Positions 11,169 to 61,860 of a stretch of 64,000 nucleotides of DNA are shown here, piece after piece (the stretch's first letter is position 1; each line of letters opens with the position of its first letter). The position numbers were made by a program, and so were the translations under genes. Under the pieces are notes generated by a model. The model did not search any database. It was not told the DNA's origin and was given only the letters and a program-made list of their open reading frames with translations. The DNA lies in the IMG/VR virus record IMGVR_UViG_3300045999_008055, one strand, 5' to 3'. This DNA is from a virus.

Positions 11169-11171
11169 TCT

Positions 11172-12236
11172 ATGAAAAGTGTTTTAAATTTAAAAAATAT
11201 AGATCATACAAAACAACCATTGTTTTTTGGAGAAGATCTTAATCTTCAAAGATATGATCGTTTTAAATATCCTATATTCTTTGAATTATTTAAAAAACAA
11301 GAAGAGTTCTTTTGGTGGCCACATGAAATAGCATTAAATAAAGATCGTAGCGATTATAAAGATCTAGCTGGACAGGAAAGGTTCGTATTTGATACTAACT
11401 TAAAATTTCAAACTCTTGGAGACAGTATGCTTTCAAGAAGTATTCATTCTTTAAAAGATTATGTAAGTAATCCAGAGCTTGAAATATGCATGAATACTTG
11501 GCAAAGATTTGAAGGTATTCATAGTTATTCTTATTCATATCTTCTTAATAATGTTCATCCAGATGCAAGTAAATTTTTTGATAGCATTATGGAAGATAAA
11601 GAAATCGTATCTCGCGCAGAGCTTATTAGAAATAATTTTGATAAAATCCTTGGTGATGATGATAAGAAAGACTTAAAACAAAAAATATTTGATTGTATCC
11701 TTTCTGTTAATGTAATGGAAGGTCTTGTATTCTATGTTTCGTTTGCTTGTTCTTTTTATTTTGGATATCGTGGTAAAATGGAAGGTAATGCTAAGATTAT
11801 TAAATTTATTCAAAGAGATGAAGCTTTACATTTTGCTACAACTCAAAACTTAATCAAGATTCTTAAAGAAGAAGATAAAGAAGGTTTTACTTCTATTGTA
11901 AAGAAGAGTGAAGATAAAGTTTATGCCTTCTATGAACAAGCTGCAAAAAATGAAATTGAATGGGCAGAGTACCTTTTTAGTAAAGGTTCTTTATTGGGTT
12001 TAAATGCAGAAGTTCTAGCTGGTTATTCTAAATGGCTTTGTGATGCTCGTTTACGATCATTAGGATATAAGAAAATTTTTAATCAAAAAGACAATCCTAT
12101 TGCTGGCTGGTTAGATAGTTATCTTGACAGTAGTAAGGTGCAAGTAGCTCCACAAGAAACAGAAATATCTACTTATAAGATTGGTGCAAGAAAAACTGAT
12201 ATATCTGATGATGATTTTGGAGATATGAAGCTATAA
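11172..12236 (+). CDS. nrdB: Class Ia ribonucleotide reductase beta subunit
   Basis: FFWWPHE, EGIHSYSY, EGLVFYVSF, RDEALH and VAPQETEISTY motifs. Confidence 0.97.
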   Translation: MKSVLNLKNIDHTKQPLFFGEDLNLQRYDRFKYPIFFELFKKQEEFFWWPHEIALNKDRSDYKDLAGQERFVFDTNLKFQTLGDSMLSRSIHSLKDYVSNPELEICMNTWQRFEGIHSYSYSYLLNNVHPDASKFFDSIMEDKEIVSRAELIRNNFDKILGDDDKKDLKQKIFDCILSVNVMEGLVFYVSFACSFYFGYRGKMEGNAKIIKFIQRDEALHFATTQNLIKILKEEDKEGFTSIVKKSEDKVYAFYEQAAKNEIEWAEYLFSKGSLLGLNAEVLAGYSKWLCDARLRSLGYKKIFNQKDNPIAGWLDSYLDSSKVQVAPQETEISTYKIGARKTDISDDDFGDMKL

Positions 12237-13999: not shown

Positions 14000-14386
14000 G
14001 GGCCAGATTTGGTTTCGATTTTAGGAATCGGAATTAGAATGCAAGTAGAGGTTTAGGTGGGTCTCTTTAAAAAGCCTTAAAAGTATTAACTGCCAAAACA
14101 GCTAAATACAAAGGTCATATCTCTGCTAGAGTTTCTCTAGTCGAGGAGACCGCTTCTGTAGCTTAAGTTCTACAGCGTGATTACCATGACACATCTAATG
14201 GATAATTGCGTATTTAGATGTCTTTATTTATAAAGTTTTTTTATTCTTTATAGGTTTAGTATTCAAAATAAAATCGCTGAGTATGTTTGTTTTTTCTCTA
14301 TACAAAGCTAAAAACAAAAAGAACTAAACTTGTAGTATTTTAATTTAAATTCACTAAAAGAAGCGGTTCGACTCCGCACTGGTCCA
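14000..14386 (+). ncRNA. ssrA: tmRNA (CCA not encoded)
   Basis: Acceptor stem GGGCCAG (14000-14006) / CTGGTCC (14379-14385) with a G3-U70 pair and discriminator A; 5' GGTTTCGA; T-arm GCGG-TTCGACT-CCGC; resume context TTAACT-GCC; tag frame 14092-14166. Confidence 0.93.
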
Positions 14387-14432
14387 AGTTTATTATTGAG
14401 AATATTTATAATTATATTATACTTAAATATTA

Positions 14433-25119: not shown

Positions 25120-25289
25120 ATAAATTAATAAGAGATGTCAAATTAATAGCGCCATCTTGTAATAATACTGAACAATTTATAGCTGAATTTTGGAAGTACC
25201 ATAAAAGACAAAATAAGAAAAGAAATATCTTCTGGTTTTCGGTTCTTGCTGTAATCTTCTTTGTATGTTGGATACTATCAAAAAATTAA
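25104..25289 (+). CDS. Small membrane protein
   Basis: C-terminal TM segment IFWFSVLAVIFFVCWIL. Confidence 0.6.
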   Translation: MDKRVNKLIRDVKLIAPSCNNTEQFIAEFWKYHKRQNKKRNIFWFSVLAVIFFVCWILSKN

Positions 25290-25540
25290 AGGATTGGTGG
25301 AAAGATCTTGAGCATTACGAGAAGTTCTTTTTTATTGTTTTTATTCCAGCTATTTTGTTTACAATTTACGGACTCAGCGATCTTTACCTTAATCATTTTG
25401 ATCTTCTTACTAAAGAGCACCATTTGGGATTTTTTCTTAGGATCTTTTTTCCGATCTCTTTAGCTCTTTATGTTACCGCTTTAGAGCGCAGAAAAAGAAG
25501 ACAATTAATAAAAGACATTAAAGATTATCTTGATAAATAA
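25265..25540 (+). CDS. Two-TM membrane protein
   Basis: Two hydrophobic helices and a basic C-terminus. Confidence 0.65.
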   Translation: MLDTIKKLKDWWKDLEHYEKFFFIVFIPAILFTIYGLSDLYLNHFDLLTKEHHLGFFLRIFFPISLALYVTALERRKRRQLIKDIKDYLDK

Positions 25541-27705: not shown

Positions 27706-28614
27706 GTGGATTATAATCTTTTAAATATTGGTGGACATGGTTTAGGTGACTGTATTTTATCTTTACAAATATCTTATCTTTTAAATCAGCAACACATTAA
27801 ACATAAGACTTTAATTTCAACAAGAAATGAAGTCTATAAACCTTTATGGTATATATTTGGAAATGTTTTAGATGTTGAACAGATTAACGAAAATATTGCC
27901 CACGAAAACAGAATTATTACAGATAAAAGTCTTCAAAGCGAATTAAAGTCTAAATATAACGCTTTAAATATTACATATAATGTACCAGATCTTCTTTTTA
28001 GAAGCCCCTTGGCTCTGGACTATAAACAATATGGTTTAAATCCTCAATTAATTAAAAAAACAAGAATACTTAATGGACATTTTGCTAAAAAAGAAAAGAT
28101 TATATATTGCGGATTAACAACCACGACAAAAGGATATACTTATGAGAATATCCCAATTCTTCTCAGATCTTTAGCCGAACATTTGCCCGATTATACTATA
28201 TACTTTCCAAAAGTTAAAAGATGGGACAAAGAAATTAATTATGATAATTTTAATATATCTTTTCCTAAAAATGTTTTTATTCACGATGATCCAACTTTTG
28301 AAGAATCATTAGATTGGTTAGTTAAAAGTGAATATGGTATATTCACATGTAATGGTCCAAGCCATATTGCTTATCAATTAGGAATTCCAAGATTAATTCT
28401 TGATCCTCAATTTAATAGAATACCTTGGATGAGTAGATGGAAAGAAGACTACGAAGAGTGCGTTCCAATTAATACAAACTATAGTGATGTAGTCAAATTA
28501 GTAGATGCAAATATAAAATACCCACAAACGACTTTGATAGATAGAAAATATTTACTTAATCTAATTCAAAATAATCAAACTACTTGGAAAGATATATTTT
28601 TCTTTAAATATTAA
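27706..28614 (+). CDS. GT9-like (heptosyltransferase-family) glycosyltransferase
   Basis: GLGDCIL and TCNGPSHIAYQLGIP. Confidence 0.7.
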   Translation: MDYNLLNIGGHGLGDCILSLQISYLLNQQHIKHKTLISTRNEVYKPLWYIFGNVLDVEQINENIAHENRIITDKSLQSELKSKYNALNITYNVPDLLFRSPLALDYKQYGLNPQLIKKTRILNGHFAKKEKIIYCGLTTTTKGYTYENIPILLRSLAEHLPDYTIYFPKVKRWDKEINYDNFNISFPKNVFIHDDPTFEESLDWLVKSEYGIFTCNGPSHIAYQLGIPRLILDPQFNRIPWMSRWKEDYEECVPINTNYSDVVKLVDANIKYPQTTLIDRKYLLNLIQNNQTTWKDIFFFKY

Positions 28615-28615
28615 A

Positions 28616-29623
28616 ATGAGAGTTTCAGATTATATTGCCAAAAGATTAGTTGAATTAGGAGTAAAGTATGTTTATGGAATAATGGGCGGTGGAGCAGGTG
28701 GTCTTAATGATGGTTTTATAAAAAATAATGATATACAATATATTTGTTTTCATCATGAGCAAGGCGCGGGTCATGCAGCCATAGGAGAAAGTAAAGTAAC
28801 AAAAAAATTATCTGTAGTTAACCCAACTACTGGATGCGGAGGAACAAATTGTTTGACCTCTCTTCTAGATGCATGGCAAGATAGTATTCCTATATTATTT
28901 ATATCTGGAAATGTTAAATTAAATCAAACTAGTTTTTTTATCAATAAGAATAAAAATATATCTATAAGAAAATATGGTGTTCAAGAACATGACATAATCT
29001 CTACAGTTAAATCTATGACAAAATATGCAAAAATTATAGAGTCAGTAGATGAAGTTGCTTATGAATTAGATTGTGCTATTAATGAAGCTTTATCTGGCAG
29101 AATGGGACCAGTTTGGCTTGATATACCAAGTGATATTCAACATGCTCAAATGCCAGAGAATTATAAAGAATTTGAATCTAAAAATATTAATATAAAAAAT
29201 AATGAACTCTCGAATGTTTTAAATATAATCAAACAGTACAATCGTCCTTTAGTTTTAGGTGGTTATGGAGTAGTTTTAAGTAAAACAAATAAAGATTTTA
29301 AAAATTTTATAGAACAAAATAATTTGCCATTTGTCACAACATATTTAGGCATAGAAATCTTAGGATACGAGCATCCTCTTAACATAGGAACAATTGGCAT
29401 CAAGGGAAGTAGATCTGGAAATTTTGCTATTCAAAATTGTGATCTATTACTGATATTAGGCTGTTCTTTAAATTGTTCTCATACAGGATATGATGAAAAC
29501 TTATTTTCACCTAAATCTTATAAAATTATGGTAGATATAGATAAGAATGAATATAATAAATTTAACGATAATAAAATAGATAAATTTATTCAAATGGACT
29601 TGAAGGATTTTTTTAATGAATAA
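28616..29623 (+). CDS. ThDP-dependent acetolactate-synthase-like (YerE-like) enzyme, N-terminal and central domains
   Basis: MRVSDYI, GGG, HHEQGAGHAA, TTGCGGTN, AWQDSIP, SGRMGPVWLDIPSDIQ and NFAIQNCDLLLILG. Confidence 0.9.
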   Translation: MRVSDYIAKRLVELGVKYVYGIMGGGAGGLNDGFIKNNDIQYICFHHEQGAGHAAIGESKVTKKLSVVNPTTGCGGTNCLTSLLDAWQDSIPILFISGNVKLNQTSFFINKNKNISIRKYGVQEHDIISTVKSMTKYAKIIESVDEVAYELDCAINEALSGRMGPVWLDIPSDIQHAQMPENYKEFESKNINIKNNELSNVLNIIKQYNRPLVLGGYGVVLSKTNKDFKNFIEQNNLPFVTTYLGIEILGYEHPLNIGTIGIKGSRSGNFAIQNCDLLLILGCSLNCSHTGYDENLFSPKSYKIMVDIDKNEYNKFNDNKIDKFIQMDLKDFFNE

Positions 29624-30368
29624 AGAAGAATGGATAGAAAAATGTAAATATTGGAAAAATAAATGGCCAATATTTATAGATGAGTTTAAAAATGATGAGA
29701 ATGGCGTTAATCTATATTCTTTTATAGAGATTCTTAATAAAAATATGACAGAAAAAGAGATCATAGTTTGCGATGCAGGTTCGGCAATCTATGTTCCATG
29801 TCAAAACCTTAAATTAAAATTAAACCAAATATTTGTTTTGTCTGGCGCGCAAGCAGATATGGGCTTTGCTTTACCAGCTGGTATAGGAGCCTATTTTGGA
29901 GATTCAACCAAGAATATCTTGGTAATTACAGGGGATGGAAGCTTTAATTCTAATCTACAAGAATTAGCAACAATAAAAAATTTTAATATACCAATCAAGA
30001 TTTTTATATGGAACAATAAAGGCTATTTAAGTATTAAAAATACACAAAATAAATTCTATGAAAAAAGAGTCTACGGAACTAGCGCAGGAAAAGGATTGTG
30101 GTTTCCAGACCTAAAAAAAGTAGCAGAAACATATGAATTAGATTATATTAAAATATCTAGTAACCAAGGATTAGAAGATAATATTAAAGAAATTATCAAT
30201 CAAAAGAAACCAATTTTATGCGAAGTCTCTTGTAAAGAAGATCAAGAGGTTATTCCAACTGTTTCTTTTAAAAAAGATCAAAGTACAGGTAAAAATATTC
30301 AATGTGGACTAGATGATATGTATCCATTCTTAGACGACCAAGAAAGAGAAAGGGAGATGATAAAATGA
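29616..30368 (+). CDS. ThDP-dependent enzyme, C-terminal ThDP-binding domain
   Basis: MGFALPAGIGA and the GDGSFNSNLQEL...WNNKGYLSI ThDP motif. Confidence 0.9.
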   Translation: MNKEEWIEKCKYWKNKWPIFIDEFKNDENGVNLYSFIEILNKNMTEKEIIVCDAGSAIYVPCQNLKLKLNQIFVLSGAQADMGFALPAGIGAYFGDSTKNILVITGDGSFNSNLQELATIKNFNIPIKIFIWNNKGYLSIKNTQNKFYEKRVYGTSAGKGLWFPDLKKVAETYELDYIKISSNQGLEDNIKEIINQKKPILCEVSCKEDQEVIPTVSFKKDQSTGKNIQCGLDDMYPFLDDQEREREMIK

Positions 30369-31294
30369 AAAAAAATATTGTTACTTTCAATAAAATGAAA
30401 GATCTAAATGAAAAAATCACTTGGATAACTGCTTATAATTATCCAATCGCATTTGCAGCAGAAAAAGCTGGAATTGATATGATTTTAGTTGGAGACTCTG
30501 GAGGAATGGTTGAATTAGGATATGAAACTACAAATCCCGTGACGATGGATGAAATGATAAGTTTTGCTAAAGCCGCAAGAAGAGGAGCACCAAATACATT
30601 TATAGTTGGTGATATGCCTCAAGGATCATATGAAGTATCCGAGGAAGAAGCTGTAAAAAATGCTCTTAGATTTGTTAAAGAAGCAGGATGTGATGCTATT
30701 AAGTTGGAAGGCGGTAAAAGAGTCGAAGATAAAATCAAAGCAATTGTTAATGCTGGTATTTTAGTCGTTGGACATCTCGGATTAACTCCTCAAAGTGCTG
30801 TTAGTTTTGGAGGATATAGAGTGCAAGGGAAAACTCAGGAAAGTTTTGAAGAAATGCTTGACGATGCAAAAGCAATAGAATACGCGGGATGTTCTATGAT
30901 CCTATTAGAAGCAGTACCCGCGAAAGTTGCGGAACAGATATCTATACAATTAAAAATTCCAATTATGGGAATTGGAGCAGGAGATTTAGTAGATGGACAA
31001 TTGATAATTGCCCATGATCTTTTGGGCTTACATCCAAATTTTAGACCTTGGTTTGCAAAATGTTATATTTCAGAAATTGTAGATAATTATTCAGATACTA
31101 TTAAATCTCAAGAGAATATTAAAAAATACGGAATTGATACAAGACAAGATGGAATATTAAATATAACAACACTAGCAATTAGAAAATATATAGAAGAAGT
31201 AAAACAAAATAAATATCCATGCAAAGATTATATCTACCCAATTAAAGAAGAAGAGCTACAGAATGTGATGAATTCTAAAAGTTGGAAATCTTAA
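30365..31294 (+). CDS. panB: Ketopantoate hydroxymethyltransferase family protein
   Basis: ITAY, ILVGDS, VTMDEM, VGDMP, AIKLEGG, GHLGLTPQ and MGIGAG...DGQ. Confidence 0.92.
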   Translation: MKKNIVTFNKMKDLNEKITWITAYNYPIAFAAEKAGIDMILVGDSGGMVELGYETTNPVTMDEMISFAKAARRGAPNTFIVGDMPQGSYEVSEEEAVKNALRFVKEAGCDAIKLEGGKRVEDKIKAIVNAGILVVGHLGLTPQSAVSFGGYRVQGKTQESFEEMLDDAKAIEYAGCSMILLEAVPAKVAEQISIQLKIPIMGIGAGDLVDGQLIIAHDLLGLHPNFRPWFAKCYISEIVDNYSDTIKSQENIKKYGIDTRQDGILNITTLAIRKYIEEVKQNKYPCKDYIYPIKEEELQNVMNSKSWKS

Positions 31295-31295
31295 A

Positions 31296-32078
31296 ATGTT
31301 AAAGATATTAATCACAGGAGGAAATGGATATATAGGAAGATCTTTATATTCTGTATTTAATAGAAAATATAATTGTAAATCTATTTCGATTTTAGATTTC
31401 GATCTTTCAAATCCACATCAAACAAAAAGATGGTTTGAAGAAAATGAATACTATGATATAGTTATTCATACAGCAATTAAAGGCGGTATGAGACTAGTTA
31501 AAGATACTGCAAATGTCATGGATGTAAACCTTAAAATGTATTACAATTTACTTGAAAATAAAGATCATTTTAATAAACTCATATCCTTCGGTTCAGGCGC
31601 AGAGATATTCCAACCAGAAACACCATACGGTTTAAGTAAAAAAATAATAGCAGAATCAATCAAAGAAATTGATAATTTTTATAATATAAGAATTTTTGCA
31701 GTTTTTGACAAGAATGAATTAAACACAAGATTTATTAAATGTAATTTATTTAAATACATAAACAAAGAGCCGATTGATATATTTACTAATAAAGTTATGG
31801 ATTTTTTCTATATGCAAGATTTGATTAATCTTGTTGATTATTATATTTTAAATGATAAACTAGATAAAGAAATTAATTGTTCTTATAAACAAAAACATAC
31901 ATTAGAAGACATAAGCGAATTCATTAATAATCTAGGAGAACATAAAGTAAAAGTCAATCTACAAAATAATAAAGATTTGCAATTCTATTGTGGACAAAGC
32001 AATCTGCCAATAACTACAATAGGTTTGGAAAAAGGCATACAAAATACTTATAGACAACTATTATTATCTACGTTATAA
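31296..32078 (+). CDS. NAD-dependent epimerase/reductase (extended SDR)
   Basis: ITGGNGYIG, FGSGAE and YGLSK. Confidence 0.85.
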   Translation: MLKILITGGNGYIGRSLYSVFNRKYNCKSISILDFDLSNPHQTKRWFEENEYYDIVIHTAIKGGMRLVKDTANVMDVNLKMYYNLLENKDHFNKLISFGSGAEIFQPETPYGLSKKIIAESIKEIDNFYNIRIFAVFDKNELNTRFIKCNLFKYINKEPIDIFTNKVMDFFYMQDLINLVDYYILNDKLDKEINCSYKQKHTLEDISEFINNLGEHKVKVNLQNNKDLQFYCGQSNLPITTIGLEKGIQNTYRQLLLSTL

Positions 32079-32084
32079 TTTAAT

Positions 32085-32954
32085 ATGCTAAAAGAAGGAA
32101 AAAATTTAAAAATAATAGGTTTAAGACCTAGCAAAGGCGGCGACTTAATTACATCTCTACCTATTTTGAATCTTTTAGAAAAGAAATATCCAAATTCATA
32201 TAAAACTGTATCGGTAGCAAAGAAAAACGCTGTATTTGCTCAATTGTTATACAATCAACCATTAATTGACAGGATTCATATTAATGAGATCTTAGAAAAT
32301 CCGAATGAAGCAGATATAGCTTTTTTTAAATCACATGACATTATTATTCCTCCAGATCTTCAACATCCAGATCCATTTTGGTATAATAAATATCATATGG
32401 TAGAAGAAAATTTTATAATGATGGGATTAAATTGGAATGATTTAGATCCAGAATTAAGAACACCAAAATTAATCAAATGGTTTGATATAGAATATAATCC
32501 TAAGACAATAGCTGTTTGGCCGATGGCTGGTAATGGATTAGATATAAAAAGAAGTCCAACAAAAGAATGGTATAAAAAACTTGTATTAAGAATACTTCAA
32601 GAAACTGATTTTAAAATAATACAATTTGGTCACCCAAACGATTTTAATATTTTAAATACAACCGAAGAGGCAAAAGGAAGATTCTTTATTGCTAAACATT
32701 TAGATTTTCTTGATCAAATTAGAACAACTTTGGGATGTTCTTTTATGATTGGAACAGATGCTGGAAGTAGTTTAGTAATGGGCGCGTATGAATTCCCACA
32801 GATTACGTTGTTGACAGATTGGATGACTAATCACATCTCAAATTTTGAAGCACTAGCACCAATGAATAAAAATAATATATCTATATTTGAGAAGGGTGGA
32901 TGTGATAATATAAAAGACGATCAAGTAATAAATGCTATCAATTTATTAAAATGA
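32085..32954 (+). CDS. GT9-like glycosyltransferase
   Basis: GGDLITSLP...KKYPN and IGTDAG. Confidence 0.7.
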   Translation: MLKEGKNLKIIGLRPSKGGDLITSLPILNLLEKKYPNSYKTVSVAKKNAVFAQLLYNQPLIDRIHINEILENPNEADIAFFKSHDIIIPPDLQHPDPFWYNKYHMVEENFIMMGLNWNDLDPELRTPKLIKWFDIEYNPKTIAVWPMAGNGLDIKRSPTKEWYKKLVLRILQETDFKIIQFGHPNDFNILNTTEEAKGRFFIAKHLDFLDQIRTTLGCSFMIGTDAGSSLVMGAYEFPQITLLTDWMTNHISNFEALAPMNKNNISIFEKGGCDNIKDDQVINAINLLK

Positions 32955-33643
32955 ATAGAAAGATAGAACTAATTACAGTATGTAAAAAATATTCTGATTT
33001 TCTGAAGATTACTTTACCGATCAATAAAAAATATTTTGATAATGTCATCGTTATTACTGATCAGGAAGATATTGAAACTCAAGAGTTATGTAAAAAAGAA
33101 AATGTTAATTTTGTCATTTACGATGGATTCAATAAGATGAATGCAAAGTTTAATTTCGGTGGAGCAAGAAATTTTGGAATACAGAATTTAAAATATTGTG
33201 ATTGGGTCATCTTTCTTGATTCAGACATAATTATCGAAGATCAAAATTTCAGAAGAATTATAGATATTGATAACATAGATATTAATAAATTTTATGGCTC
33301 ATACAGAAGATTTATTCCAACATACAAAGATTATCTATTATATAGAAATGGATTAAAGACAAAAGATGATTTTGAAGCTATAGAAGGAAGTGGTTGTGGA
33401 TTCTTTCAATGCATAAACTTAAATAGTGATGTAGCTAGATATTATGGACTAGCTAATTTATATAAAGACAGCTATTCTTCAATAGAAGTAGATATTAATT
33501 TCCTTAAATTATGGTGTCCAAGAATTGATCCAGAGAATCATCCTAGATTGGTAAAAACAAATATAGAATTATTACATCTTGGTACATCAGATGGAAGGCA
33601 TCATTATGGACGAGATGAAAAAGACCCTTTCTTTAGAGAATAA
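32951..33643 (+). CDS. GT2-like glycosyltransferase
   Basis: FNFGGARN, FLDSD and GFFQ. Confidence 0.7.
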   Translation: MNRKIELITVCKKYSDFLKITLPINKKYFDNVIVITDQEDIETQELCKKENVNFVIYDGFNKMNAKFNFGGARNFGIQNLKYCDWVIFLDSDIIIEDQNFRRIIDIDNIDINKFYGSYRRFIPTYKDYLLYRNGLKTKDDFEAIEGSGCGFFQCINLNSDVARYYGLANLYKDSYSSIEVDINFLKLWCPRIDPENHPRLVKTNIELLHLGTSDGRHHYGRDEKDPFFRE

Positions 33644-33646
33644 AAA

Positions 33647-34507
33647 ATGAAAACTATTGCCGTTATAATTGCAGACGATAATACATCAGCTTGGAGAATG
33701 AAGGCTATAAATTCTTTTAAATTTTTCCATCCAGATATTAATTTAATTCATTATTCAAATGAAGAAATAAAAAATATAATTGAGAAATATAACTTAGAAA
33801 AAGTTGAAATAAATCTTAGATTTGTTGGCCCATTAATATTAAAAGAAGTATGGGAAAAGGAAAATCCAGATCTATTAATTAAAATAGGTAATGATACTTT
33901 GACTTTAGGTAGATTTGATGAGATATTAAATAATAAATATGATGTTGCCGCTGGAAGAAATGATACAAATTTAATAAATAATAAAGACGAAAGAATTAAT
34001 AGACCAGATGAAATAAAAGAAATACCAAATAACGAATGGGTAAACGCAGATCTTATAGCTATAAGGAATAAAAATTTTTTAGATGAATATGTTAATTTAA
34101 CTTTAGACTATGCTTTTGGAAGAAAAATGGCGATCAATTCTTTTGGTAAAACTTACAATGGAGATTGCCAAATGTCATTAAATGTCATCTTTAGAAATCG
34201 AGGTTATAATAGTTTAATTTTAGATAAAGATACTTCTGGAGTTATATATAATGCTTCTGGTAATTGGACCGGTGGAGAAGATAAAAGACCAGCGTGTTTA
34301 CAATGGCATCCAAATAATTGGACGAGTTGGAAATATATTTATTTTGATGAACAAAAATGTATAATGCCAGATTTAGGAATAGGTTGTGGAGATAGAGTAG
34401 TTAAATGTCTTCATCATTGTGGTGGAGATTTAAAATATAAGCTTTCTTGGGATTTTTTTAATGAAGATTTCTTACCTTATTTAAGAAAAATTACTGGAGT
34501 TAATTAA
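33647..34507 (+). CDS. Putative glycosyltransferase (GT-A / GT8-like)
   Basis: NSFKFFHPDI, WVNAD, QMSLN and LHHCGG; cluster context. Confidence 0.5.
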   Translation: MKTIAVIIADDNTSAWRMKAINSFKFFHPDINLIHYSNEEIKNIIEKYNLEKVEINLRFVGPLILKEVWEKENPDLLIKIGNDTLTLGRFDEILNNKYDVAAGRNDTNLINNKDERINRPDEIKEIPNNEWVNADLIAIRNKNFLDEYVNLTLDYAFGRKMAINSFGKTYNGDCQMSLNVIFRNRGYNSLILDKDTSGVIYNASGNWTGGEDKRPACLQWHPNNWTSWKYIYFDEQKCIMPDLGIGCGDRVVKCLHHCGGDLKYKLSWDFFNEDFLPYLRKITGVN

Positions 34508-36701: not shown

Positions 36702-37461
36702 ACCCAAAATAGGCATTTTATATTGCGCTTATAATTGCAAAACTTATTTAAAAGAAAGTTTAGATAATTTTTTTAAGGCCAAAAAGGATGGATTAATACA
36801 TGAGATCTGCGCGGTTTCGTTACCATTTCTTGAATATTATGATATAAACAATACTGACGACGGAACCACGGAAGAGATTGTAAATTTATATAAAGAAGGA
36901 AGCATAGATTACGCCTTTACTAACCCTAAATATATAAAAGAACATTTAGCAAGAGATCTTTGTCTGCAATATTTAAAATTCAAAGAATGTGATCTATTTT
37001 GGTTAGTTGATGGAGATGAATTCTATTCACTAGAAGATATTAAGAACATAATTTCATTCGTAGAATCAAATCAAGAATATTGTTGGTATACTATAAATTT
37101 TAAAAATTATATATTCGATGGCAAGCAGTGGATTGATGGTTTTTGTCCATCTAGAATTTTTAGAAAAAACTTTAATGATTTTAAAATACAGTCTTTCTAT
37201 TGGGATAACGATATAGGTTATGAGAAAGATAATAAGATTTATAATTATAAAGACCTACCTAAACTAGAGGTTCCAAAAGATATAGCCCATATAAAGCATC
37301 TTACTTGGCTTCATCTGAATGGTAAAGATAAATATGAATATCAAATGAAACATTTTGGATATTGTGGATATATATGGAACTATGAGTTGAATCAATTAGA
37401 ATTTAATAAACAATTTTATTTGAAAACCAATCAACAATTACCTACGATATATTATGAATAA
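36694..37461 (+). CDS. GT2-like glycosyltransferase
   Basis: AYNC, TDDGT and VDGDEFY. Confidence 0.75.
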   Translation: MIKPKIGILYCAYNCKTYLKESLDNFFKAKKDGLIHEICAVSLPFLEYYDINNTDDGTTEEIVNLYKEGSIDYAFTNPKYIKEHLARDLCLQYLKFKECDLFWLVDGDEFYSLEDIKNIISFVESNQEYCWYTINFKNYIFDGKQWIDGFCPSRIFRKNFNDFKIQSFYWDNDIGYEKDNKIYNYKDLPKLEVPKDIAHIKHLTWLHLNGKDKYEYQMKHFGYCGYIWNYELNQLEFNKQFYLKTNQQLPTIYYE

Positions 37462-38617
37462 TTTTAAATGGCCCCTAAATAATTCTAGTTTTAATCTATT
37501 AGATAGAATTAAAATATCAAGATTTATATTAAATAAGGCTAATTTTTGGACTCAAGGGAAATATGTAAAACAATTCGAAGATAAATTCAAGCGCTTTGTA
37601 GGCTCAAAGTATTCTGTATTTGTATCTAGTGGATCTACTGCAAATACCTTAATGGCTATGTTCTTAAAAGATAAGGTTTATACTAAAAATAAGAATATTG
37701 TAATATTTCCCTCAACAACTTGGACGACTTCAATATCTCCTTTTATAAGAGAGGGTTTTACGCCAAAATTTATAGACATTTCTTTAGAAGATTTTTGTTT
37801 AGATTTGAATCTAACAGAAAAATATCTTAAGAAAAATTACAAAAAGGTCGCAGCAATTGTTTGTGTGTCTTTAATTGGTCAGGTTCCAGATATTAAAAAA
37901 TTAAAAGAGTTAGAAGCAAAATATAAGGTTAAAATATTTTTAGATAACTGCGAAAATACACTTGGTAAATATAAAGATAAAAATATATCCTCATATTTTA
38001 CAAGCAGTACAAGTACATACTTCGGACATCAAGTACAAAGTGTAGAGGGTGGGTTTATTTTTACTAATTCTCAAGAAGAATATGAATATTTTATAATGAA
38101 TAGAAATCATGGTATGACTAGAGGATTGAAATTATATGGTTTAGACGATAAGAAATATTCAAATCAAGATGTTGATGAATCATTTGATTTTTGCACTTTA
38201 GGTAATAATTTTAGAAACACAGATATTAATGCTTTTATTGGTCTATTAGATTTTAATAGGATTGAAAATTATCTAAACAAAAGAGTTGAAATATTCAATA
38301 AAATTAAAAATACTTTATCATTAAAAGATATTATTCTTCCTCAAGAATATTCAGATAGAATGTCCGCACCTTTTTGTTTCCCGATTATTTCTAAAGATAG
38401 ATCTGTAGTAGATATGTTTAAACAATTCTGTAAAGATAATAAAATAGAAATTAGACCAATAATATCTGGCAATCTTCTTAGACAGACTTGTTATAAACAA
38501 TATGCAAATTTTAAAGATTTTAAAAATAGCGAATTTTTGCATACAAATGGTTTTTATTTTGGAATATATCCAACTATAACAGATAAACAAATAGAAATAT
38601 TAAAAAAATATGAATAA
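37454..38617 (+). CDS. PLP-dependent DegT family protein, ColD-like NDP-4-keto-6-deoxysugar 3-dehydratase
   Basis: VSSGSTAN, DNCE; His in place of the catalytic Lys (TYFGHQVQSVEGG); no Fe-S Cys cluster. Confidence 0.75.
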   Translation: MNNFKWPLNNSSFNLLDRIKISRFILNKANFWTQGKYVKQFEDKFKRFVGSKYSVFVSSGSTANTLMAMFLKDKVYTKNKNIVIFPSTTWTTSISPFIREGFTPKFIDISLEDFCLDLNLTEKYLKKNYKKVAAIVCVSLIGQVPDIKKLKELEAKYKVKIFLDNCENTLGKYKDKNISSYFTSSTSTYFGHQVQSVEGGFIFTNSQEEYEYFIMNRNHGMTRGLKLYGLDDKKYSNQDVDESFDFCTLGNNFRNTDINAFIGLLDFNRIENYLNKRVEIFNKIKNTLSLKDIILPQEYSDRMSAPFCFPIISKDRSVVDMFKQFCKDNKIEIRPIISGNLLRQTCYKQYANFKDFKNSEFLHTNGFYFGIYPTITDKQIEILKKYE

Positions 38618-40252: not shown

Positions 40253-40931
40253 ACTACATAATATAAATAATGAAACTATTTTACCCATAGTTTTATTTGG
40301 AAATAATCGGGATTCAGAAATAACAAATTACCATAGACAAGTTATGGTGGAGTATTTTAATATACCATTTAATTATGTCTCTTGTCCATTTCCATATGTT
40401 TCGCACGGATTATGCATGGATGAAGTAATAAATTTAACTATAGATTCTTTAAAACCTGATTATTATTGGTTTTGTGATAATGACGCTATAATTCTAAAGA
40501 AAGAATGCGTAGATATAATGTATGATATGGTAAAAAATAAAATGACTTTAGCAGGTCAGATTTGGCAAAGCAATCATAAAAAGGGGCCAAATGGTATGAT
40601 TCCTCATCCTTATATAAGTCAAGCTTTTATGTGGTTATCTAGAGATCTTTATAATAATCTAGGAAGACCTACTTGCGATGACAAAACAGAAAGATCTGAT
40701 ACTGCTGAAGAAATAACTTATCTAGCAAAAGAAAAAGGCTATTTTGTAGCAGGATGCTATCCTTCTCATTCAGTTTTAAGAAATGTAGATCTTGATAATG
40801 GATTTAAATATGGATTAAGCAATACATATGGCCCAAATCTAATGTATCACGCAAGTCAACAAGATAATCCAAAAAGTAAAGATTTATTTATTGAAAAATG
40901 TAAAGAGGTTCTAAATGGAAAATTCTTATAA
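40242..40931 (+). CDS. Putative GT-A glycosyltransferase
   Basis: FCDNDA (DxD) and RSDTAEE; cluster context. Confidence 0.55.
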   Translation: MNFKLHNINNETILPIVLFGNNRDSEITNYHRQVMVEYFNIPFNYVSCPFPYVSHGLCMDEVINLTIDSLKPDYYWFCDNDAIILKKECVDIMYDMVKNKMTLAGQIWQSNHKKGPNGMIPHPYISQAFMWLSRDLYNNLGRPTCDDKTERSDTAEEITYLAKEKGYFVAGCYPSHSVLRNVDLDNGFKYGLSNTYGPNLMYHASQQDNPKSKDLFIEKCKEVLNGKFL

Positions 40932-42231
40932 AGAAGATATAAAATTATTTATCCAACAACTCACAAAGAAGTATGGATTCTTACCAAAGTTTGCTCACAA
41001 TTTAAATCCAGATTTAAAAAATAAAGTTTATTATTCTGGCGCATATTTTGATGAAAATGAAATCTCTGCAGCAATAGAGACTCTTTTATTTGGCAAATGG
41101 AGTTCTAGCGGAGAAGTTTGTGCGAAATTCGAGAAAGAATTTAGCAAAAAAATAAATCAAAAATACTCTTTCTTCACAAATTCTGGCTCTTCTGCTAATT
41201 TACTATTAGTAGCAGCTTGTAAGGAATATTTTAATTGGCAAGATAATGATGAAGTGATTGTGTCTGCGGTAGGTTTTCCTACAACTACATCTCCACTTAT
41301 TCACAATAATTTAAAGCCAGTATTTATTGATATTGAATGGGACACATTAAATTTTGATCTATCTAAAATAGAAGAAAAAATAACAGATAAAACTGTAGCA
41401 ATCTTTTTATCTCCAGTATTAGGTAATCCACCAGACATGGATAAATTAATCAATCTATTAAATAAATATCCAAAGATTAAACTTCTTTTAGATAATTGTG
41501 ATTCTTTGGGTTCAAAATGGAATGATAAGTATTTAAATGAATACGCAGTCGTATCGTCTTGTTCCTTTTATCCCGCTCATGAAATCACAACTCTAGAAGG
41601 TGGAATGGTATCCTCTAATATTGAAGAAATAATAAAACTAGCTCGAAGTTATGCAACTTGGGGAAGAGATTGCTGGTGCATTGGTACTGCAAATCTATTA
41701 TGCCAAGGATCTTGTAATAAAAGATTCTCTAACTGGCTCCAAGATTTTCCAGAGACAATTATAGATCATAAGTATGTATTCAATAGAATTGGATATAACT
41801 TAAAACCTTTAGATTTACAAGCTGCAATAGGAATTGAGCAACTTAAAAAGCTTGATTTTATCTGCCAAAAAAGAAAATCGAATCTTGATAAAATACTCTC
41901 TATATTTCAGAAAAATCTAAATTCATTAAGAAGTGTCAATGTATTTGATAAAACTCATTGGGTTCCATTTGGCGTTCCTCTTATATGTAAATCAAAAGAA
42001 GAAAAGATGAAACTTGTAAATTATTTAGAAAATAATGGAATCCAAACCAGAAATTATTTTGCAGGTAATCTTTTAATGCATAAAGGTTATAAATATTTAG
42101 ATAATTATAAAAATTATCCAGAATCAAATAAAGTTCTAGATCTAGTATTCTTTATTGGCTGTTCTCCAACTATTGACGAAGAAAATATATCTTACATAGA
42201 ACAAAAGATAAAAGAATATGAACAAAATTAG
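40915..42231 (+). CDS. rfbH: NDP-4-keto-6-deoxyglucose 3-dehydrase (E1/DdhC/RfbH)
   Basis: NSGSSAN, DNCDSLGS, SFYPAH (His), WGRDCWC...C..RF Fe-S motif and DHKYVF..IGYNLK. Confidence 0.88.
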   Translation: MENSYKEDIKLFIQQLTKKYGFLPKFAHNLNPDLKNKVYYSGAYFDENEISAAIETLLFGKWSSSGEVCAKFEKEFSKKINQKYSFFTNSGSSANLLLVAACKEYFNWQDNDEVIVSAVGFPTTTSPLIHNNLKPVFIDIEWDTLNFDLSKIEEKITDKTVAIFLSPVLGNPPDMDKLINLLNKYPKIKLLLDNCDSLGSKWNDKYLNEYAVVSSCSFYPAHEITTLEGGMVSSNIEEIIKLARSYATWGRDCWCIGTANLLCQGSCNKRFSNWLQDFPETIIDHKYVFNRIGYNLKPLDLQAAIGIEQLKKLDFICQKRKSNLDKILSIFQKNLNSLRSVNVFDKTHWVPFGVPLICKSKEEKMKLVNYLENNGIQTRNYFAGNLLMHKGYKYLDNYKNYPESNKVLDLVFFIGCSPTIDEENISYIEQKIKEYEQN

Positions 42232-43033
42232 CGTTTTTGGCTCTACAGGTTTTATTGGTAAAAAATGGATGGAGTTATATCCAATAGAATCTTTTGCCGA
42301 GGACAGATCTTCAATTATATCAAAAAATAAAGACATTCTATATTTCAGAGGAACAAATTCAAATTATTCCGTTTTCAAAGATCCAACATTAGAAATAAAA
42401 ACAAATTTATTATTATTAACAGAAATGTTTTCTAATTTAAATAAAGATAATACTTTCAATCTTATATCTTCCTGGTTTGTATATGGCAAAAACAATCTTA
42501 TTACAAATTCAGAGAATGATTATTGTAATCCAAAGGGTTTTTATTCTATTGCAAAATATGCCCAAGAACAATTTTTAGAATCTTACTGTAAAACTTTTGG
42601 TATAAATTATAGGATATTAAGATTATGTAATATTATCGGAAAAGATGCTGGCGCTAATTCACAAAAGAATGCGACAGAATATCTAATTGAAAGATTGAAA
42701 AGGAATGAAGAGGTCAACGTATATAAAGGAGATAATTATAGAAACTTTCTTTTTGTAGAAGATGTTTGTCGAGCTATAAAATTAGTTTTAGATAAAGGCG
42801 AAAAAGATCAAATTTATAATATTGGTAATACAGAAAGCGTAAAACTAATAGACATTATTTATTATTGTAAAAAAATATTAAATTCTGAAAGTAAAATCAA
42901 CTTCATAGATCCTCCGCTTTTTCACCAACAAGTTCAAGCGAAAGATTTCCACATGAATATAAATAAATTATATAGTTTAGGATTTAAACCTAAATATTCT
43001 CTAGAGGACACATTAAAAATATTGTGCAAATAA
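42218..43033 (+). CDS. NAD-dependent epimerase/reductase (extended SDR)
   Basis: GSTGFIG, SSWFVYG and YSIAK. Confidence 0.85.
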   Translation: MNKISVFGSTGFIGKKWMELYPIESFAEDRSSIISKNKDILYFRGTNSNYSVFKDPTLEIKTNLLLLTEMFSNLNKDNTFNLISSWFVYGKNNLITNSENDYCNPKGFYSIAKYAQEQFLESYCKTFGINYRILRLCNIIGKDAGANSQKNATEYLIERLKRNEEVNVYKGDNYRNFLFVEDVCRAIKLVLDKGEKDQIYNIGNTESVKLIDIIYYCKKILNSESKINFIDPPLFHQQVQAKDFHMNINKLYSLGFKPKYSLEDTLKILCK

Positions 43034-43034: not shown

Positions 43035-43664
43035 ATGGCTAATGGAATTTATAAGATAACAGAAGAATTTGAACAAGCTTTATCAAAATATACAGGCGCA
43101 CCTTATGTCGTAACTGTAGATAATGCTAGTAATGCTTTATTTTTATCTTTAGTCTATGAAAATGTAAAAGGACAAGTAATAGATATCCCAGCTAGAACTT
43201 ATCCATCTGTTCCTTGTGAAATTATACATGCTGGAGGAAAAGTTAATTTTATACCAGTAAATAGTAATAAAATAAAAGGTGCATACCAATTAAAACCTAC
43301 AAAAATTTGGGATAGTGCTTTAAGATTTACTTCAAATATGTATCTACCTAATAGCCATATGTGCATCTCTTTTACCGGTCCATATAAACACTTTAAACTT
43401 AGTAAAGGAGGAGCAATTTTAACTGATGATTATAAAGCTTATCTTTGGTTTAAAAGAGCTAGATATAGTGGTAGAAGAGAATGTTCGTATCATGACGATA
43501 ATTTTGATATGCTTGGTTGGAATTTTTATATGATGCCAGAACTAGCGGCTAGAGGATTACTTCTAATGAATCAATTTTATAATACAGATGGAACGCCTAA
43601 ACATAATGAAGATTTAGAATTACCTTATCCAGATCTATCAAAATTTGAGATATATAAAAAATAA
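43035..43664 (+). CDS. Short DegT/DnrJ-family aminotransferase
   Basis: FEQAL..YTGAPY.VTVD and SFTGPYKH (Lys retained); only 209 aa. Confidence 0.75.
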   Translation: MANGIYKITEEFEQALSKYTGAPYVVTVDNASNALFLSLVYENVKGQVIDIPARTYPSVPCEIIHAGGKVNFIPVNSNKIKGAYQLKPTKIWDSALRFTSNMYLPNSHMCISFTGPYKHFKLSKGGAILTDDYKAYLWFKRARYSGRRECSYHDDNFDMLGWNFYMMPELAARGLLLMNQFYNTDGTPKHNEDLELPYPDLSKFEIYKK

Positions 43665-44276: not shown

Positions 44277-45019
44277 TACATATATTCTATCGAGCTACAA
44301 GTTATCCAGAGGTAGGAAATAAATGTAGACCAAATTATTTTTCATTAGAGAAATGTTTTAAGAATTTTTTAGATACGCTAAATTTTAATAAAGCGAAATT
44401 AACAGTAGTTTTTGATGGGCCTATTAAAAATAGTTTTATTTTAAAATATAAAGACAAATATAAATTTGATATTCATTTAATTAATGCTGGAACAGATTTT
44501 AAGTCAAATACTATGACTTTTCAATATATTAAAGAACAAAAATTAGCAGATAATGATATAATTTATGTCTTGGAACAAGATTACCTTCATTTGCCTTGGG
44601 TTGACGCAGTTGAATTCTTATATCAAACAAATCCAAATTATAATATAAATAATTCTTATATATCCTTATATGATCACGGCGATAAATATACAAGAAATAA
44701 TCCAGATATGAAGAATACAGAATGGGGCATGTACCATGATTTAAAATCACAAATCTATTTTACTCCTTATAGATATCTTAGAACTGTACCTAACACTTGC
44801 GGTTCCTTTATATTAAGCAAACAACTCTTCGACAAAGATTATGAAATTCATATTTCTGGTAAAGCGGATAACACAAGATTTCATATTTTAACCCAAGAAC
44901 CTTATAATCGAATAGTTTTAAGTTTTATGCCTGGATTTTCTACTCATATGCACACGCATTTTCTATCACCATTTGCAGATTGGGAAGAAGTAAACAAACA
45001 AACAATTTTATTACCATGA
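44273..45019 (+). CDS. Putative GT-A glycosyltransferase
   Basis: YVLEQDYLH, SLYDHGDKY and PGFSTH. Confidence 0.6.
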   Translation: MIHIFYRATSYPEVGNKCRPNYFSLEKCFKNFLDTLNFNKAKLTVVFDGPIKNSFILKYKDKYKFDIHLINAGTDFKSNTMTFQYIKEQKLADNDIIYVLEQDYLHLPWVDAVEFLYQTNPNYNINNSYISLYDHGDKYTRNNPDMKNTEWGMYHDLKSQIYFTPYRYLRTVPNTCGSFILSKQLFDKDYEIHISGKADNTRFHILTQEPYNRIVLSFMPGFSTHMHTHFLSPFADWEEVNKQTILLP

Positions 45020-45987
45020 ATATTTTAGTTACAGGAGGTTTAGGATTTATAGGATCTAATTTTATTAGAACTATAATTAATAAGGATTCCATATCTTCTA
45101 TAGTAAATATAGATTGTCCAAGTAAATTAAGCGCAGCTGCAAATATAAATAATGCAAAAGATTTTAAAGACAATCCAAAATATCATTTTTATGATTTTTG
45201 GTTAGATCATCTAGAAGATCCTCAGACCTTTAAGAAATTTATTCAAGTGTTAAAAGATCATAAGATATCACATATAATACATTTCGCCGCAGAGACTCAT
45301 GTTGACAATTCTATATCAAATCCTAGAGACTTTTTGAGATCTAATATAATTGGAACATTTAATCTTTTAGAATTATGTAAACAAGAAAACTTAAGAATTC
45401 ATTTAATTTCTACAGATGAAGTATACGGCAGTTTAGGACACGAAGGAAAATTTTCAGAAACTTCTTGCTATGCACCAAATTCTCCTTATTCCGCTTCTAA
45501 AGCTTCAGCCGATATGCTCGCTAGAGCTTATTATCATACATTTAAAGTTCCTATAACAATATCTAATTGTTCTAATAATTATGGCCCATATCAACATAAT
45601 GAAAAATTTATACCTGTAGTTATAAATTCAATATTAAATAATCAAAAAATACCTGTTTATGGTACAGGAAAAAATATTAGAGACTGGATTTATGTAATAG
45701 ATCATTGCGAAGCTGTATTTGAGATTGTTAAAAATGGAAAGATTGGCGAGACATATAATATTGGTGGAGATTGCGAAAAAACTAATTTAGAAATTATATC
45801 TAACATCTGTAAAATATTACAAGTTAATCCAGAAGACTACATTAAATTTGTAGAAGATAGGAAAGGTCATGATTTTAGATACGCTATAGATAATACGAAG
45901 ATTAATAAAGAATTGAATTGGTATCCTAGAACTGATTTTTTACATGGTTTAGAAAAAACTATAGAATTTTATAAAAATAAATATTAG
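44980..45987 (+). CDS. rmlB: dTDP-glucose 4,6-dehydratase (start probably 45016)
   Basis: TGGLGFIGSN, FAAETHVDNSI, STDEVYG, PYSASK, SNNYGP and DRKGHDFRYA. Confidence 0.95.
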   Translation: MGRSKQTNNFITMNILVTGGLGFIGSNFIRTIINKDSISSIVNIDCPSKLSAAANINNAKDFKDNPKYHFYDFWLDHLEDPQTFKKFIQVLKDHKISHIIHFAAETHVDNSISNPRDFLRSNIIGTFNLLELCKQENLRIHLISTDEVYGSLGHEGKFSETSCYAPNSPYSASKASADMLARAYYHTFKVPITISNCSNNYGPYQHNEKFIPVVINSILNNQKIPVYGTGKNIRDWIYVIDHCEAVFEIVKNGKIGETYNIGGDCEKTNLEIISNICKILQVNPEDYIKFVEDRKGHDFRYAIDNTKINKELNWYPRTDFLHGLEKTIEFYKNKY

Positions 45988-45996: not shown

Positions 45997-47049
45997 ATGA
46001 AAAAAGTTATTATTACCGGCGTTACAGGTCAAGATGGATCTTATATGGTAGATTATATATTAAATAACACAAATTATTTTGTTTATGGTGTTAGAAGAAG
46101 AAGTTCTAATCCCAATCTAGAGAATATACAACATAACTTAAATAATGAAAGATTTAAATTTATAATAGGAGATTTATCTGATAGTAATTCTATAGATGAA
46201 ATTGTAAAAGACATAAAGCCAGATTATTTTATTAATTTTGCGGCACAATCTTTCGTTGGTAGTAGCTGGCAAATTCCCTTACAGACTTTTGATGCAACCG
46301 CACTTGGTGTGCTTAGATGTTTAGAAGCTATAAGAAAATATGCTCCTAATTGTAGATTTTATTCAGCGGGTTCTAGTGAAGAAATGGGCGATGTTTTATA
46401 TAGCCCTCAAGACTTAAAACATCCAATTCGTCCTCGTAGCCCATATGGTGCAGCTAAAGCAGCCGCAAGACATATTACAAAGGTTTACAGAGATTCTTAT
46501 AATCTTTTTGCAATACATTCTATTCTTTATAATCACGAAAGCGAAAGACGAGGGGAAGAATTTGTCACCAGAAAAATTACAAAAGGTGTTGCTAGAATAT
46601 ATAATGCATTAAAAAATAATATAGATTTTGCTCCAATTGAACTAGGTAACTTAGATGCAAAAAGAGATTGGAGTCATGCTGAAGATTTTATTAATGGTAT
46701 ATGGTTAATGTTGAATCAAGATAAACCAAAAGAATATATCCTTTCCTCAGATGAAACGCATAGTATTAGAGAATTTGTTGAAAAAGCTTTTTTAGCTATT
46801 GATATAAAAGGATCATGGATCTATAATGGAGATGGAAGAGATGAAGATGAAGCATTTTATTTTAAAGATAATCAAGGAAATTACAAACAGTTAGTAAAAA
46901 TTAACCCTAAATTCTTTCGTCCTGCTGAAGTAGATCTCTTATTGGGTAATTCATCAGAGGCAAGAAATGAACTAAATTGGAAACCAAAAGTATCTTTTAA
47001 TGAACTAGTTGAAAGAATGGTCAAATCAGATATACAGAACTATAAGTGA
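45997..47049 (+). CDS. gmd: GDP-mannose 4,6-dehydratase
   Basis: ITGVTGQDGSY, AAQSFV, PRSPYGAAK, NHES.RRG..FVTRKIT, LGNLDAKRDW and RPAEVDLLLG. Confidence 0.95.
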   Translation: MKKVIITGVTGQDGSYMVDYILNNTNYFVYGVRRRSSNPNLENIQHNLNNERFKFIIGDLSDSNSIDEIVKDIKPDYFINFAAQSFVGSSWQIPLQTFDATALGVLRCLEAIRKYAPNCRFYSAGSSEEMGDVLYSPQDLKHPIRPRSPYGAAKAAARHITKVYRDSYNLFAIHSILYNHESERRGEEFVTRKITKGVARIYNALKNNIDFAPIELGNLDAKRDWSHAEDFINGIWLMLNQDKPKEYILSSDETHSIREFVEKAFLAIDIKGSWIYNGDGRDEDEAFYFKDNQGNYKQLVKINPKFFRPAEVDLLLGNSSEARNELNWKPKVSFNELVERMVKSDIQNYK

Positions 47050-58224: not shown

Positions 58225-58231
58225 ATTTATT

Positions 58232-61853: not shown

Positions 61854-61860
61854 TATTAAA

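Follow-up and report, generated by a model that had tools for sequence, protein, structure and literature searches.

Why would a virus carry panB, a gene named for a step in making a vitamin, among genes for sugars? The question is raised by IMG/VR record IMGVR_UViG_3300045999_008055, a stretch of viral DNA of 64,000 nucleotides (nt) that we call the window. In it, two halves of a thiamine diphosphate (ThDP)-dependent carboligase, a PanB-like hydroxymethyltransferase and a short-chain dehydrogenase/reductase (SDR) form a four-gene module within a ~27-kb glycan cluster of a tailed phage. An earlier note on this DNA had proposed that PanB is repurposed for a branched sugar, either by making the donor for the ThDP enzyme or by extending the branch. 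In silico analysis supports that proposal, and the precedent of known branched-sugar clusters favors donor-making. We established the identities of the genes, their intact catalytic motifs, the paralogue status of PanB and the conservation of the neighborhood; the most likely product of the gene set is a deoxysugar with a carbon branch, so far undescribed, and not the vitamin.

The module consists of the following genes, with lengths in amino acids (aa):

28616-29623 (+): N-terminal part of the ThDP carboligase (PYR and middle domains), 335 aa; TPP_enzyme_N 104 bits, TPP_enzyme_M 95 bits
29616-30368 (+): C-terminal part of the ThDP carboligase (PP domain), 250 aa; TPP_enzyme_C 107 bits
30365-31294 (+): PanB-like hydroxymethyltransferase of a clade of 309-aa paralogues; PF02548 (Pantoate_transf) 319 bits, TIGR00222 278 bits
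31296-32078 (+): short extended SDR of the NAD-dependent epimerase/dehydratase type, 260 aa; Pfam Epimerase 50 bits

All four are consecutive and overlap or abut, as the earlier note had described. The ThDP halves overlap by 8 nt, with a junction that reads AATGAATAA; the C-terminal half overlaps panB by 4 nt, and a gap of 1 nt separates panB from the SDR gene.

The PanB–ThDP pair and its relatives

We fetched 108 loci around relatives of the window PanB and located homologues of the window genes in them, the neighborhood survey that the earlier note had suggested. A ThDP gene adjoins panB in 40 loci (30 with the ThDP gene first, 9 with panB first and 1 with the two on opposite strands), and these include all 23 IMG/VR loci. 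The pairing is kept across bacteria, archaea and phages; its non-viral carriers include Bacteroidota, Bdellovibrionota, Saccharibacteria, Verrucomicrobiota, Acidobacteriota and Pacearchaeota (DPANN archaea). Because the same adjacency recurs in these 40 other loci, the module is not a chance arrangement. Identity across the 40 loci is 48–72% for PanB and 27–70% for the ThDP partner.

The company that the pair keeps points to sugars. In 28 of the 40 loci a His-type 3-dehydrase, which is a DegT-family protein with His at the Lys position, is encoded no more than 9 kb away; in 18 of those 28 it carries the full Fe-S signature of E1. A Lys-type aminotransferase alone is found in just 2 of the 40. 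At one Algoriphagus locus the genes stand in textbook order, with nucleotidyltransferase, 4,6-dehydratase, a 446-aa E1-type DegT-family protein, a fused ThDP gene, panB and SDR.

The ThDP enzyme itself appears to be YerE-like and not a plain acetolactate synthase. We compared its halves with solved structures. The N-terminal half scores best against 5AHK (PpYerE, 164 bits) and 8RPH (JanthE, 157 bits), with 130 bits for the best acetolactate synthase; the C-terminal half scores 126 bits against 8RPH and 80 bits against the best acetolactate synthase. YerE-like structures thus outscore every acetolactate synthase for both halves, which at the level of sequence tells against the plain acetolactate synthase that the earlier note had held up as the counter-case. 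Both halves do match many acetolactate synthase models, all far under cut-off (at most 196 bits against cut-offs of 538–1084). The catalytic Glu is intact within the HHEQG motif of the N-terminal half, and the C-terminal half has the GDG…NN ThDP/Mg motif (GDGSF…WNN), which in the family takes the form GDG-X(24-27)-NN. The three-domain PYR/middle/PP architecture of YerE-like carboligases is complete but divided over two polypeptides.

Two open reading frames (ORFs) here, against one fused gene in 29 of the 40 loci, could mean that the gene is a decaying pseudogene and that the module is non-functional in this phage. We regard this as highly improbable. The split falls at the domain boundary before the PP domain, and the same split, with overlapping stop and start, is found in 10 related loci, whose halves are 64–70% identical to those of the window and show no further breaks. 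Because the split recurs in 10 loci with halves diverged to this extent, we attribute it neither to faulty assembly nor to decay but to a lineage that maintains it. The catalytic motifs are kept in both halves, and the junction has the look of translational coupling. Two-piece enzymes are feasible because PYR and PP domains from different chains together build the ThDP active site.

PanB exceeds both curated cut-offs, with 278 bits for the TIGR00222 panB equivalog model (cut-off 207.55 bits) and 313 bits for NF001452 (cut-off 272 bits). The Mg2+-binding and catalytic residues D45, S46, D84, K112, E114, H136 and E181 (Escherichia coli numbering) are all kept and do not vary among the 96 sequences aligned. 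A tree and an active-site comparison, of the kind the earlier note had called for, both indicate that the protein sits in a separate clade. The window PanB falls in a clade of 13 rows, all of them ThDP-linked, with 98% support, and is 55–72% identical to clade members against 42–49% to canonical PanBs. Specific to the clade and invariant within it are Leu and Ile at positions 212 and 214, the change F87Q and a stretch of ~28 inserted aa. Clade members are ~309 aa long with a longer C-terminus, compared with ~265–285 aa for canonical enzymes.

Three Acidobacteria genomes have a canonical panB (323–343 bits) abutting panC, plus this paralogue (250–266 bits) elsewhere, and we therefore take the window PanB for a paralogue and not the housekeeping enzyme. 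Two genomes with the PanB–ThDP pair have neither panC nor another panB, panC is absent from three CheckV-complete related phage records with the pair, and the paralogue never adjoins panC in the loci examined. The picture is of a catalytically intact-looking paralogue that is not tied to panC, its orphan status being judged on relatives. On those relatives we also checked the possibility, raised against its own proposal by the earlier note, of an ordinary ketopantoate role with panC or panE elsewhere in the genome; genomes with panBC keep the paralogue separately. One candidate phage relative was set aside: in 'Microcystis phage MaAM05' (L111; MW495066.1, 256369-271070) panB, panC and sufBCD stand in a row, and this neighborhood looks like bacterial chromosomal DNA.

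These results bear on the most conventional explanation, in which an acetolactate synthase and PanB are auxiliary genes that boost valine, pantothenate or coenzyme A synthesis in the host, panC and panE come from the host and the position in a glycan cluster is incidental. PanB lies above the NCBIfam panB equivalog cut-off and the ThDP halves match many acetolactate synthase models, as this explanation expects. Those model scores are far below their cut-offs, however, and the best solved matches are YerE-like structures. The earlier note had seen no panC, panE, ilvC or ilvD, and indeed none is among the scanned window ORFs of at least 250 aa; nor were these genes or a regulatory small subunit found in the window ORFs scanned or in complete related phage records. 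The paralogue is kept apart in genomes with a panBC operon, and its adjacency to 3-dehydrases is conserved across domains of life. We consider a role in ordinary metabolism very unlikely.

The proposed pathway and its alternatives

A model for what the pair may do comes from the erwiniose, caryophyllose and gastriose clusters. In these, an aldolase beside a YerE-like enzyme supplies a 4-hydroxy-2-oxo acid donor, the ThDP enzyme couples the donor to CDP-4-keto-3,6-dideoxyglucose and a reductase then completes the branch (the 'unifying scheme'; Steitz et al., 2022, PMC9306805). ErwE rejects pyruvate and accepts 4-hydroxy-2-oxobutanoate (PMC9306805). Since PanB chemistry gives 4-hydroxy-2-oxo acids, the same product class, the simplest reading is that PanB replaces the aldolase.

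We propose, with moderate confidence, that PanB makes a 4-hydroxy-2-oxo acid, that the YerE-like enzyme attaches the resulting acyl unit to C4 of a nucleoside diphosphate (NDP)-4-keto-3,6-dideoxyhexose and that an SDR reduces the branch ketone. With 5,10-methylene-tetrahydrofolate and Mg2+, the PanB paralogue would transfer a hydroxymethyl group to a small 2-oxo acid in free form. Possible donors are 4-hydroxy-2-oxobutanoate (from pyruvate), its 3-methyl form (from 2-oxobutanoate) and ketopantoate (from 2-oxoisovalerate). The two-piece ThDP enzyme would then decarboxylate the donor and add the acyl unit to an acceptor supplied by the 4,6-dehydratase and the E1-type 3-dehydrase of the cluster. 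Either of two short SDRs (31296-32078 or 42218-43033) could carry out the reduction, and soluble glycosyltransferases of the cluster would move the branched sugar, probably onto a cytoplasmic acceptor, for example virion proteins. What we infer is which donor is used, in which order the steps run, which nucleotide carries the sugar, what the product is and to what the glycan is attached. Two observations argue that PanB acts first, with a free acid as its substrate: 29 loci hold members of this PanB clade, their signature residues unchanged, but no neighboring ThDP gene, and PanB is far more conserved than its ThDP partners.

The genes that would make and reduce the acceptor are these:

40915-42231 (+): E1/RfbH-type 3-dehydrase dependent on pyridoxamine 5'-phosphate, proposed maker of the 4-keto-3,6-dideoxy acceptor, 438 aa; RfbH model 342 bits over its full length
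44980-45987 (+): NDP-glucose 4,6-dehydratase, predicted first committed step toward the acceptor, 335 aa; TIGR01181 402 bits against a cut-off of 365
37454-38617 (+): ColD-like 3-dehydratase, 387 aa; ColD/WbdK 2GMS 151 bits over its full length, His at the aminotransferase Lys site
45997-47049 (+): GDP-mannose 4,6-dehydratase-like protein, 350 aa; TIGR01472 gmd 360 bits against a cut-off of 415, GDP_Man_Dehyd 368 bits
42218-43033 (+): second short SDR and alternative reductase, overlapping the end of the 3-dehydrase gene, 271 aa; Epimerase 95 bits, motifs GSTGFIG and YSIAK

The list confirms the rfbH and the colD-like gene that the earlier note had placed in the cluster, and it puts the ThDP enzyme in the same cluster as an E1-type dehydrase and a 4,6-dehydratase, the predicted enzymes for NDP-4-keto-3,6-dideoxyhexose. 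The score of the 3-dehydrase is under the RfbH cut-off of 423 bits; its best solved relative is Yersinia E1 (3BCX/3BB8, 227 bits, full-length alignment), and alignment to 3BCX finds counterparts of H220, which takes the place of the Lys that holds pyridoxal 5'-phosphate, and of C193, C251, C253 and C261, the four Cys that bind the [2Fe-2S] cluster. The ColD-like and Gmd-like genes may constitute a second route to 3,6-dideoxysugars beside this one or another way to supply the acceptor.

In the SDR of the module (31296-32078) the Rossmann motif reads TGGNGYIG and the YxxxK motif reads YGLSK. The protein distantly resembles dTDP-4-dehydrorhamnose reductase and GDP-fucose synthase and has homologues after panB in 18 loci. 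It is a candidate reductase of the branch ketone, in a YerF-like role. The earlier note had counted it as part of the module: it does stand next to panB in the window, but it is not a fixed part. The closest relatives, L109 and L110, lack it; beside the dehydrase they have an SDR of 272–276 aa, of a size to be a homologue of 42218-43033. The latter is not an SDR fragment, a possibility ruled out by its complete motifs. After it comes a 209-aa ORF (43035-43664, +) whose similarity to DegT-type aminotransferases is confined to their first ~75 residues; it could be what is left of a gene or a short protein of a new kind.

The steps could also run in the opposite order, which was the second option of the earlier note. 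The YerE-like enzyme would add an acetyl or propionyl branch from pyruvate, PanB would hydroxymethylate the sugar-bound acyl group or the carbon beside the ring 4-ketone and the SDR would reduce. The tight gene overlaps are compatible with either order. A 4-C-acyl-4-hydroxy group could chelate Mg2+ like a 2-oxo acid, and the clade-invariant F87Q and ~28-aa insertion could reshape the PanB site for a larger substrate. However, the 29 loci just mentioned show the same clade and signature residues where no ThDP gene is near, and PanB is more conserved than the ThDP partners and the E1- and ColD-type dehydrases, as expected for one small common substrate. We know of no PanB that acts on a substrate without the 2-oxo-acid carboxylate. 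In the only precedent that has been tested, the pathway starts with the aldol reaction, and ErwE refuses pyruvate (PMC9306805). We judge the opposite order unlikely.

Somewhat more doubtful still is a free small molecule in place of a C-branch: for example, a hydroxy acid or acyloin that would later acylate an amino sugar at O or N, or a metabolite with no link to the glycan. Sugar aminotransferase-family genes and a NeuD/VioB-type N-acetyltransferase in the cluster would suit such a product, as would the occurrence of the PanB clade outside sugar clusters, and YerE-like enzymes are promiscuous carboligases in vitro (PMC12247030). Against it, the DegT-family neighbor in 28 of the 40 loci is not a Lys-type aminotransferase but a His-type 3-dehydrase, an enzyme that yields precisely the 4-keto-3,6-dideoxy compound onto which YerE and ErwE build. 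The SDR is similar to NDP-sugar ketoreductases, and no acyl-activating enzyme or acyl carrier is seen in the module.

Several observations weigh against the donor-making pathway or leave parts of it to the host. The 29 clade loci without a nearby ThDP gene mean that the PanB clade has at least one other role. The SDR beside PanB is missing in L109 and L110, whose PanB is 95% identical to that of the window. The 4,6-dehydratase scores as dTDP-type, with only 97 bits for the CDP-glucose dehydratase model, whereas a CDP-sugar is the substrate of the characterized E1. The host would have to contribute part of the acceptor pathway, since the window yielded neither an E3-type reductase nor a sugar-1-phosphate nucleotidyltransferase. 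Finally, the changes in the PanB pocket are only conservative, so that the sequence does not single out a donor and ketopantoate, the normal PanB product, is among the candidates. Engineering of E. coli ketopantoate hydroxymethyltransferase identifies I202, I212 and V214 as substrate-pocket residues (PMC7610986); these positions are I, L and I in the paralogue and I, I/V and V in canonical enzymes. The slightly bulkier residues faintly hint at a substrate smaller than 2-oxoisovalerate; together with F87Q, the pocket positions point, if only tentatively, to an altered pocket.

L109 and L110 also appear to be without the GT2-like gene (32951-33643) and the 286-aa gene (33647-34507) that follow in the window (10001-12000 in these loci against 31296-34507 in the window). 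With the SDR gene lacking as well, the cluster is mosaic even between near-identical phages.

In Spirochaetota, Elusimicrobiota and Oligoflexia, the PanB paralogue is adjoined by a ~420-aa protein without known family, at these positions:

L010:2767-4029: ~420-aa protein
L012:4948-6210: ~420-aa protein
L013:8654-9925: ~420-aa protein
L016:3729-4994: ~420-aa protein
L034:8595-9851: ~420-aa protein
L011:11096-12184: ~420-aa protein

It had no match in Pfam or in the Atlas. Its predicted fold is confident (predicted local distance difference test, pLDDT, of 80) and TIM-barrel-like, with only weak Foldseek matches (E of at least 0.004) and no clear solved relative. The protein may mark a second use of the product of the paralogue; as a clue to what that product is, it was uninformative. 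Other neighbors of the paralogue in Acidobacteria are unrelated to one another.

A more far-reaching version of the proposal would make the PanB clade of bacteria, DPANN archaea and jumbo phages the mark of a whole class of 3,6-dideoxysugars, so far undescribed, whose C-branch of 3–5 carbons is lengthened by a hydroxymethyl group; in this phage, soluble glycosyltransferases would put the sugar on virion proteins. At its boldest, it would have PanB hydroxymethylate the NDP-sugar-bound acyl group directly. We treat this as a long shot; to our knowledge, that type of reaction has no example in the PanB family.

The earlier note knew of no described pathway of this kind. In our literature search no paper pairs PanB with a YerE-like enzyme, with the limit that Krug et al. 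2024 (Angew e202403535) was outside its coverage, so that a prior mention is possible. That study reportedly lists more than 200 YerE-like clusters. The pathway is not without precedent, being a variant of the unifying scheme (PMC9306805). What is new here is the tailed-phage setting, the conserved two-piece ThDP enzyme, the test of panBC against the paralogue and the survey of dehydrase signatures.

If the donor-making pathway is right, genes routinely labeled 'acetolactate synthase' and 'PanB' in the genomes of phages, candidate phyla radiation bacteria, DPANN archaea and many other bacteria are sugar-pathway genes and not amino-acid or vitamin genes, which would alter how metabolism is reconstructed from genomes and how auxiliary metabolic genes of viruses are interpreted. 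It would also predict a widespread, so far undescribed surface sugar and would add a folate-dependent one-carbon route to the known aldolase routes to side-chain donors. The pair, including a naturally two-piece YerE-like enzyme, could serve as biocatalysts for tertiary alcohols. The idea is directly testable with four recombinant proteins.

The surrounding cluster and the phage

The earlier note had placed the module between two GT9-like genes, of which one finds some support:

27706-28614 (+): upstream flank, 302-aa protein without known family; no Pfam or NCBIfam match even at E of 5 or less
32085-32954 (+): downstream flank, possible GT-B/GT9-like glycosyltransferase, 289 aa; Glyco_transf_9 E = 0.013 and heptosyltransferase II E = 0.004, both sub-threshold

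The GT9-like label is retained as a sub-threshold possibility for the downstream flank and dropped as unsupported for the matchless upstream one, which shows only faint similarity to its downstream counterpart. L109 and L110 have an equally placed 302-aa gene upstream, and in them the 289-aa gene follows directly after panB.

Glycan genes are dense at ~20100-47800 and 58200-62700. They encode two DUF6734 proteins, GT2/GT92-like, GT4-like, GT9-like and CAP59/Anp1-like transferases, an FkbM methyltransferase, a DUF5672 protein, a NeuD/VioB acetyltransferase and the Gmd and ColD-like proteins. We predicted membrane segments for 41 ORFs of at least 118 aa across 17.7-48.2 kb and 58.2-63.7 kb, plus 7396-8484. 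None of the 41 has a membrane-spanning segment, the sole exception being a separate 91-aa ORF (25265-25540) with two; there is therefore no flippase, polymerase or polyprenyl-phosphate transferase in the scored regions. Several soluble glycosyltransferases without membrane segments suggest cytoplasmic glycosylation, for example of virion proteins. A ~27-kb cluster of soluble sugar enzymes only would suggest elaborate glycosylation of virions or other cytoplasmic targets.

By its gene content the window is a piece of a large tailed phage, not of a bacterial chromosome. Its G+C content is 28%, and nearly all genes lie on one strand. Among the encoded proteins are both ribonucleotide reductase subunits, a virion structural protein and a UvsX-like recombinase, and also a primase, a DnaB-like helicase, a DnaE-like polymerase and an exonuclease. 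The nearest relatives (PanB 95–97% identical) are metagenomic contigs of 130–158 kb. A phage terminase is present in 3 of 5 related viral records tested, which marks them as tailed phages; a capsid model for nucleocytoplasmic large DNA viruses had no match in the 5 records, nor in its control. In the GenBank phage collection we found no cultured phage closely related to the window by its DnaE-like polymerase and no isolate with a close homologue of the module.

Other features of the window and of one related contig are as follows:

55612-58221 (+): replicative polymerase, DnaE-like (C-family); ~30% identity to DnaE-like polymerases of Streptomyces, Bacillus and Moorella phages
14000-14387 (+): full-length transfer-messenger RNA gene; tag peptide AKTAKYKGHISARVSLVEETASVA according to ARAGORN; 90.5 bits for Rfam RF00023, whose gathering score is 47
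2074-3066 (-), 3658-4758 (-) and 5415-5831 (-): nucleotide-metabolism block with an adenylosuccinate-synthetase-like protein (330 aa), a GMP-reductase/IMPDH-like protein and a dCMP deaminase
L002:15785-16519 (-): DruA (Druantia defense) family gene on a related phage contig, just downstream of its glycan cluster

The adenylosuccinate-synthetase-like protein is under both of its cut-offs (PurA 261 against 402 bits; PurZ 99 against 300 bits). With this short gene so far below the PurZ cut-off, we dropped the idea of a Z-genome.

Comparison with known systems

JanthE (8RPH) and PpYerE (5AHK) are the closest solved relatives of both window halves. They are single polypeptides whose physiological substrates are unknown or pyruvate, whereas the window enzyme is in two pieces; JanthE carries a CDG motif where the window enzyme has the canonical GDG. 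JanthE accepts longer and functionalized 2-oxo acid donors (PMC12188165). Canonical PanB (E. coli 1M3U, Mycobacterium tuberculosis 1OY0) has the fold family and the metal-binding and catalytic residues in common with the paralogue, which differs in its separate clade, F87Q, Leu 212, Ile 214 and ~28-aa insertion and in its coexistence with panBC in three Acidobacteria genomes.

Yersinia pseudotuberculosis makes yersiniose A by means of E1/E3, YerE and YerF, a pathway that shares with the window an E1-type dehydrase with His for Lys and four Fe-S Cys, a ThDP enzyme closest to the solved YerE-like structures and an SDR after the ThDP enzyme. It includes E3, whereas neither an E3 reductase nor a cytidylyltransferase was found in the window. 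YerE takes pyruvate directly, without a donor-forming enzyme; in the module the PanB paralogue is always attached.

The nearest parallels in logic are the erwiniose, caryophyllose and gastriose systems, namely ErwI/ErwJ, ErwE and ErwF of Pectobacterium atrosepticum, MMAR_2331/2332 and MygI/MyGE/MygF. Like them, the window has genes for 4-keto-3,6-dideoxyhexose and, by predicted function, an enzyme that forms a C–C bond to yield a 4-hydroxy-2-oxo acid, next to a ThDP enzyme of the YerE-like type and a reductase that uses NAD(P)H. The predicted logic is also common to both: donor formation, ThDP-dependent branching at C4 and ketoreduction. The window differs from these clusters in its split ThDP enzyme, in a 4,6-dehydratase that is dTDP-type by score and in being carried by a tailed phage. 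Where the known clusters use a pyruvate aldolase and an aldehyde dehydrogenase, the window has a tetrahydrofolate-dependent hydroxymethyltransferase of the PanB family, and the branch would therefore be extended by one hydroxymethyl carbon.

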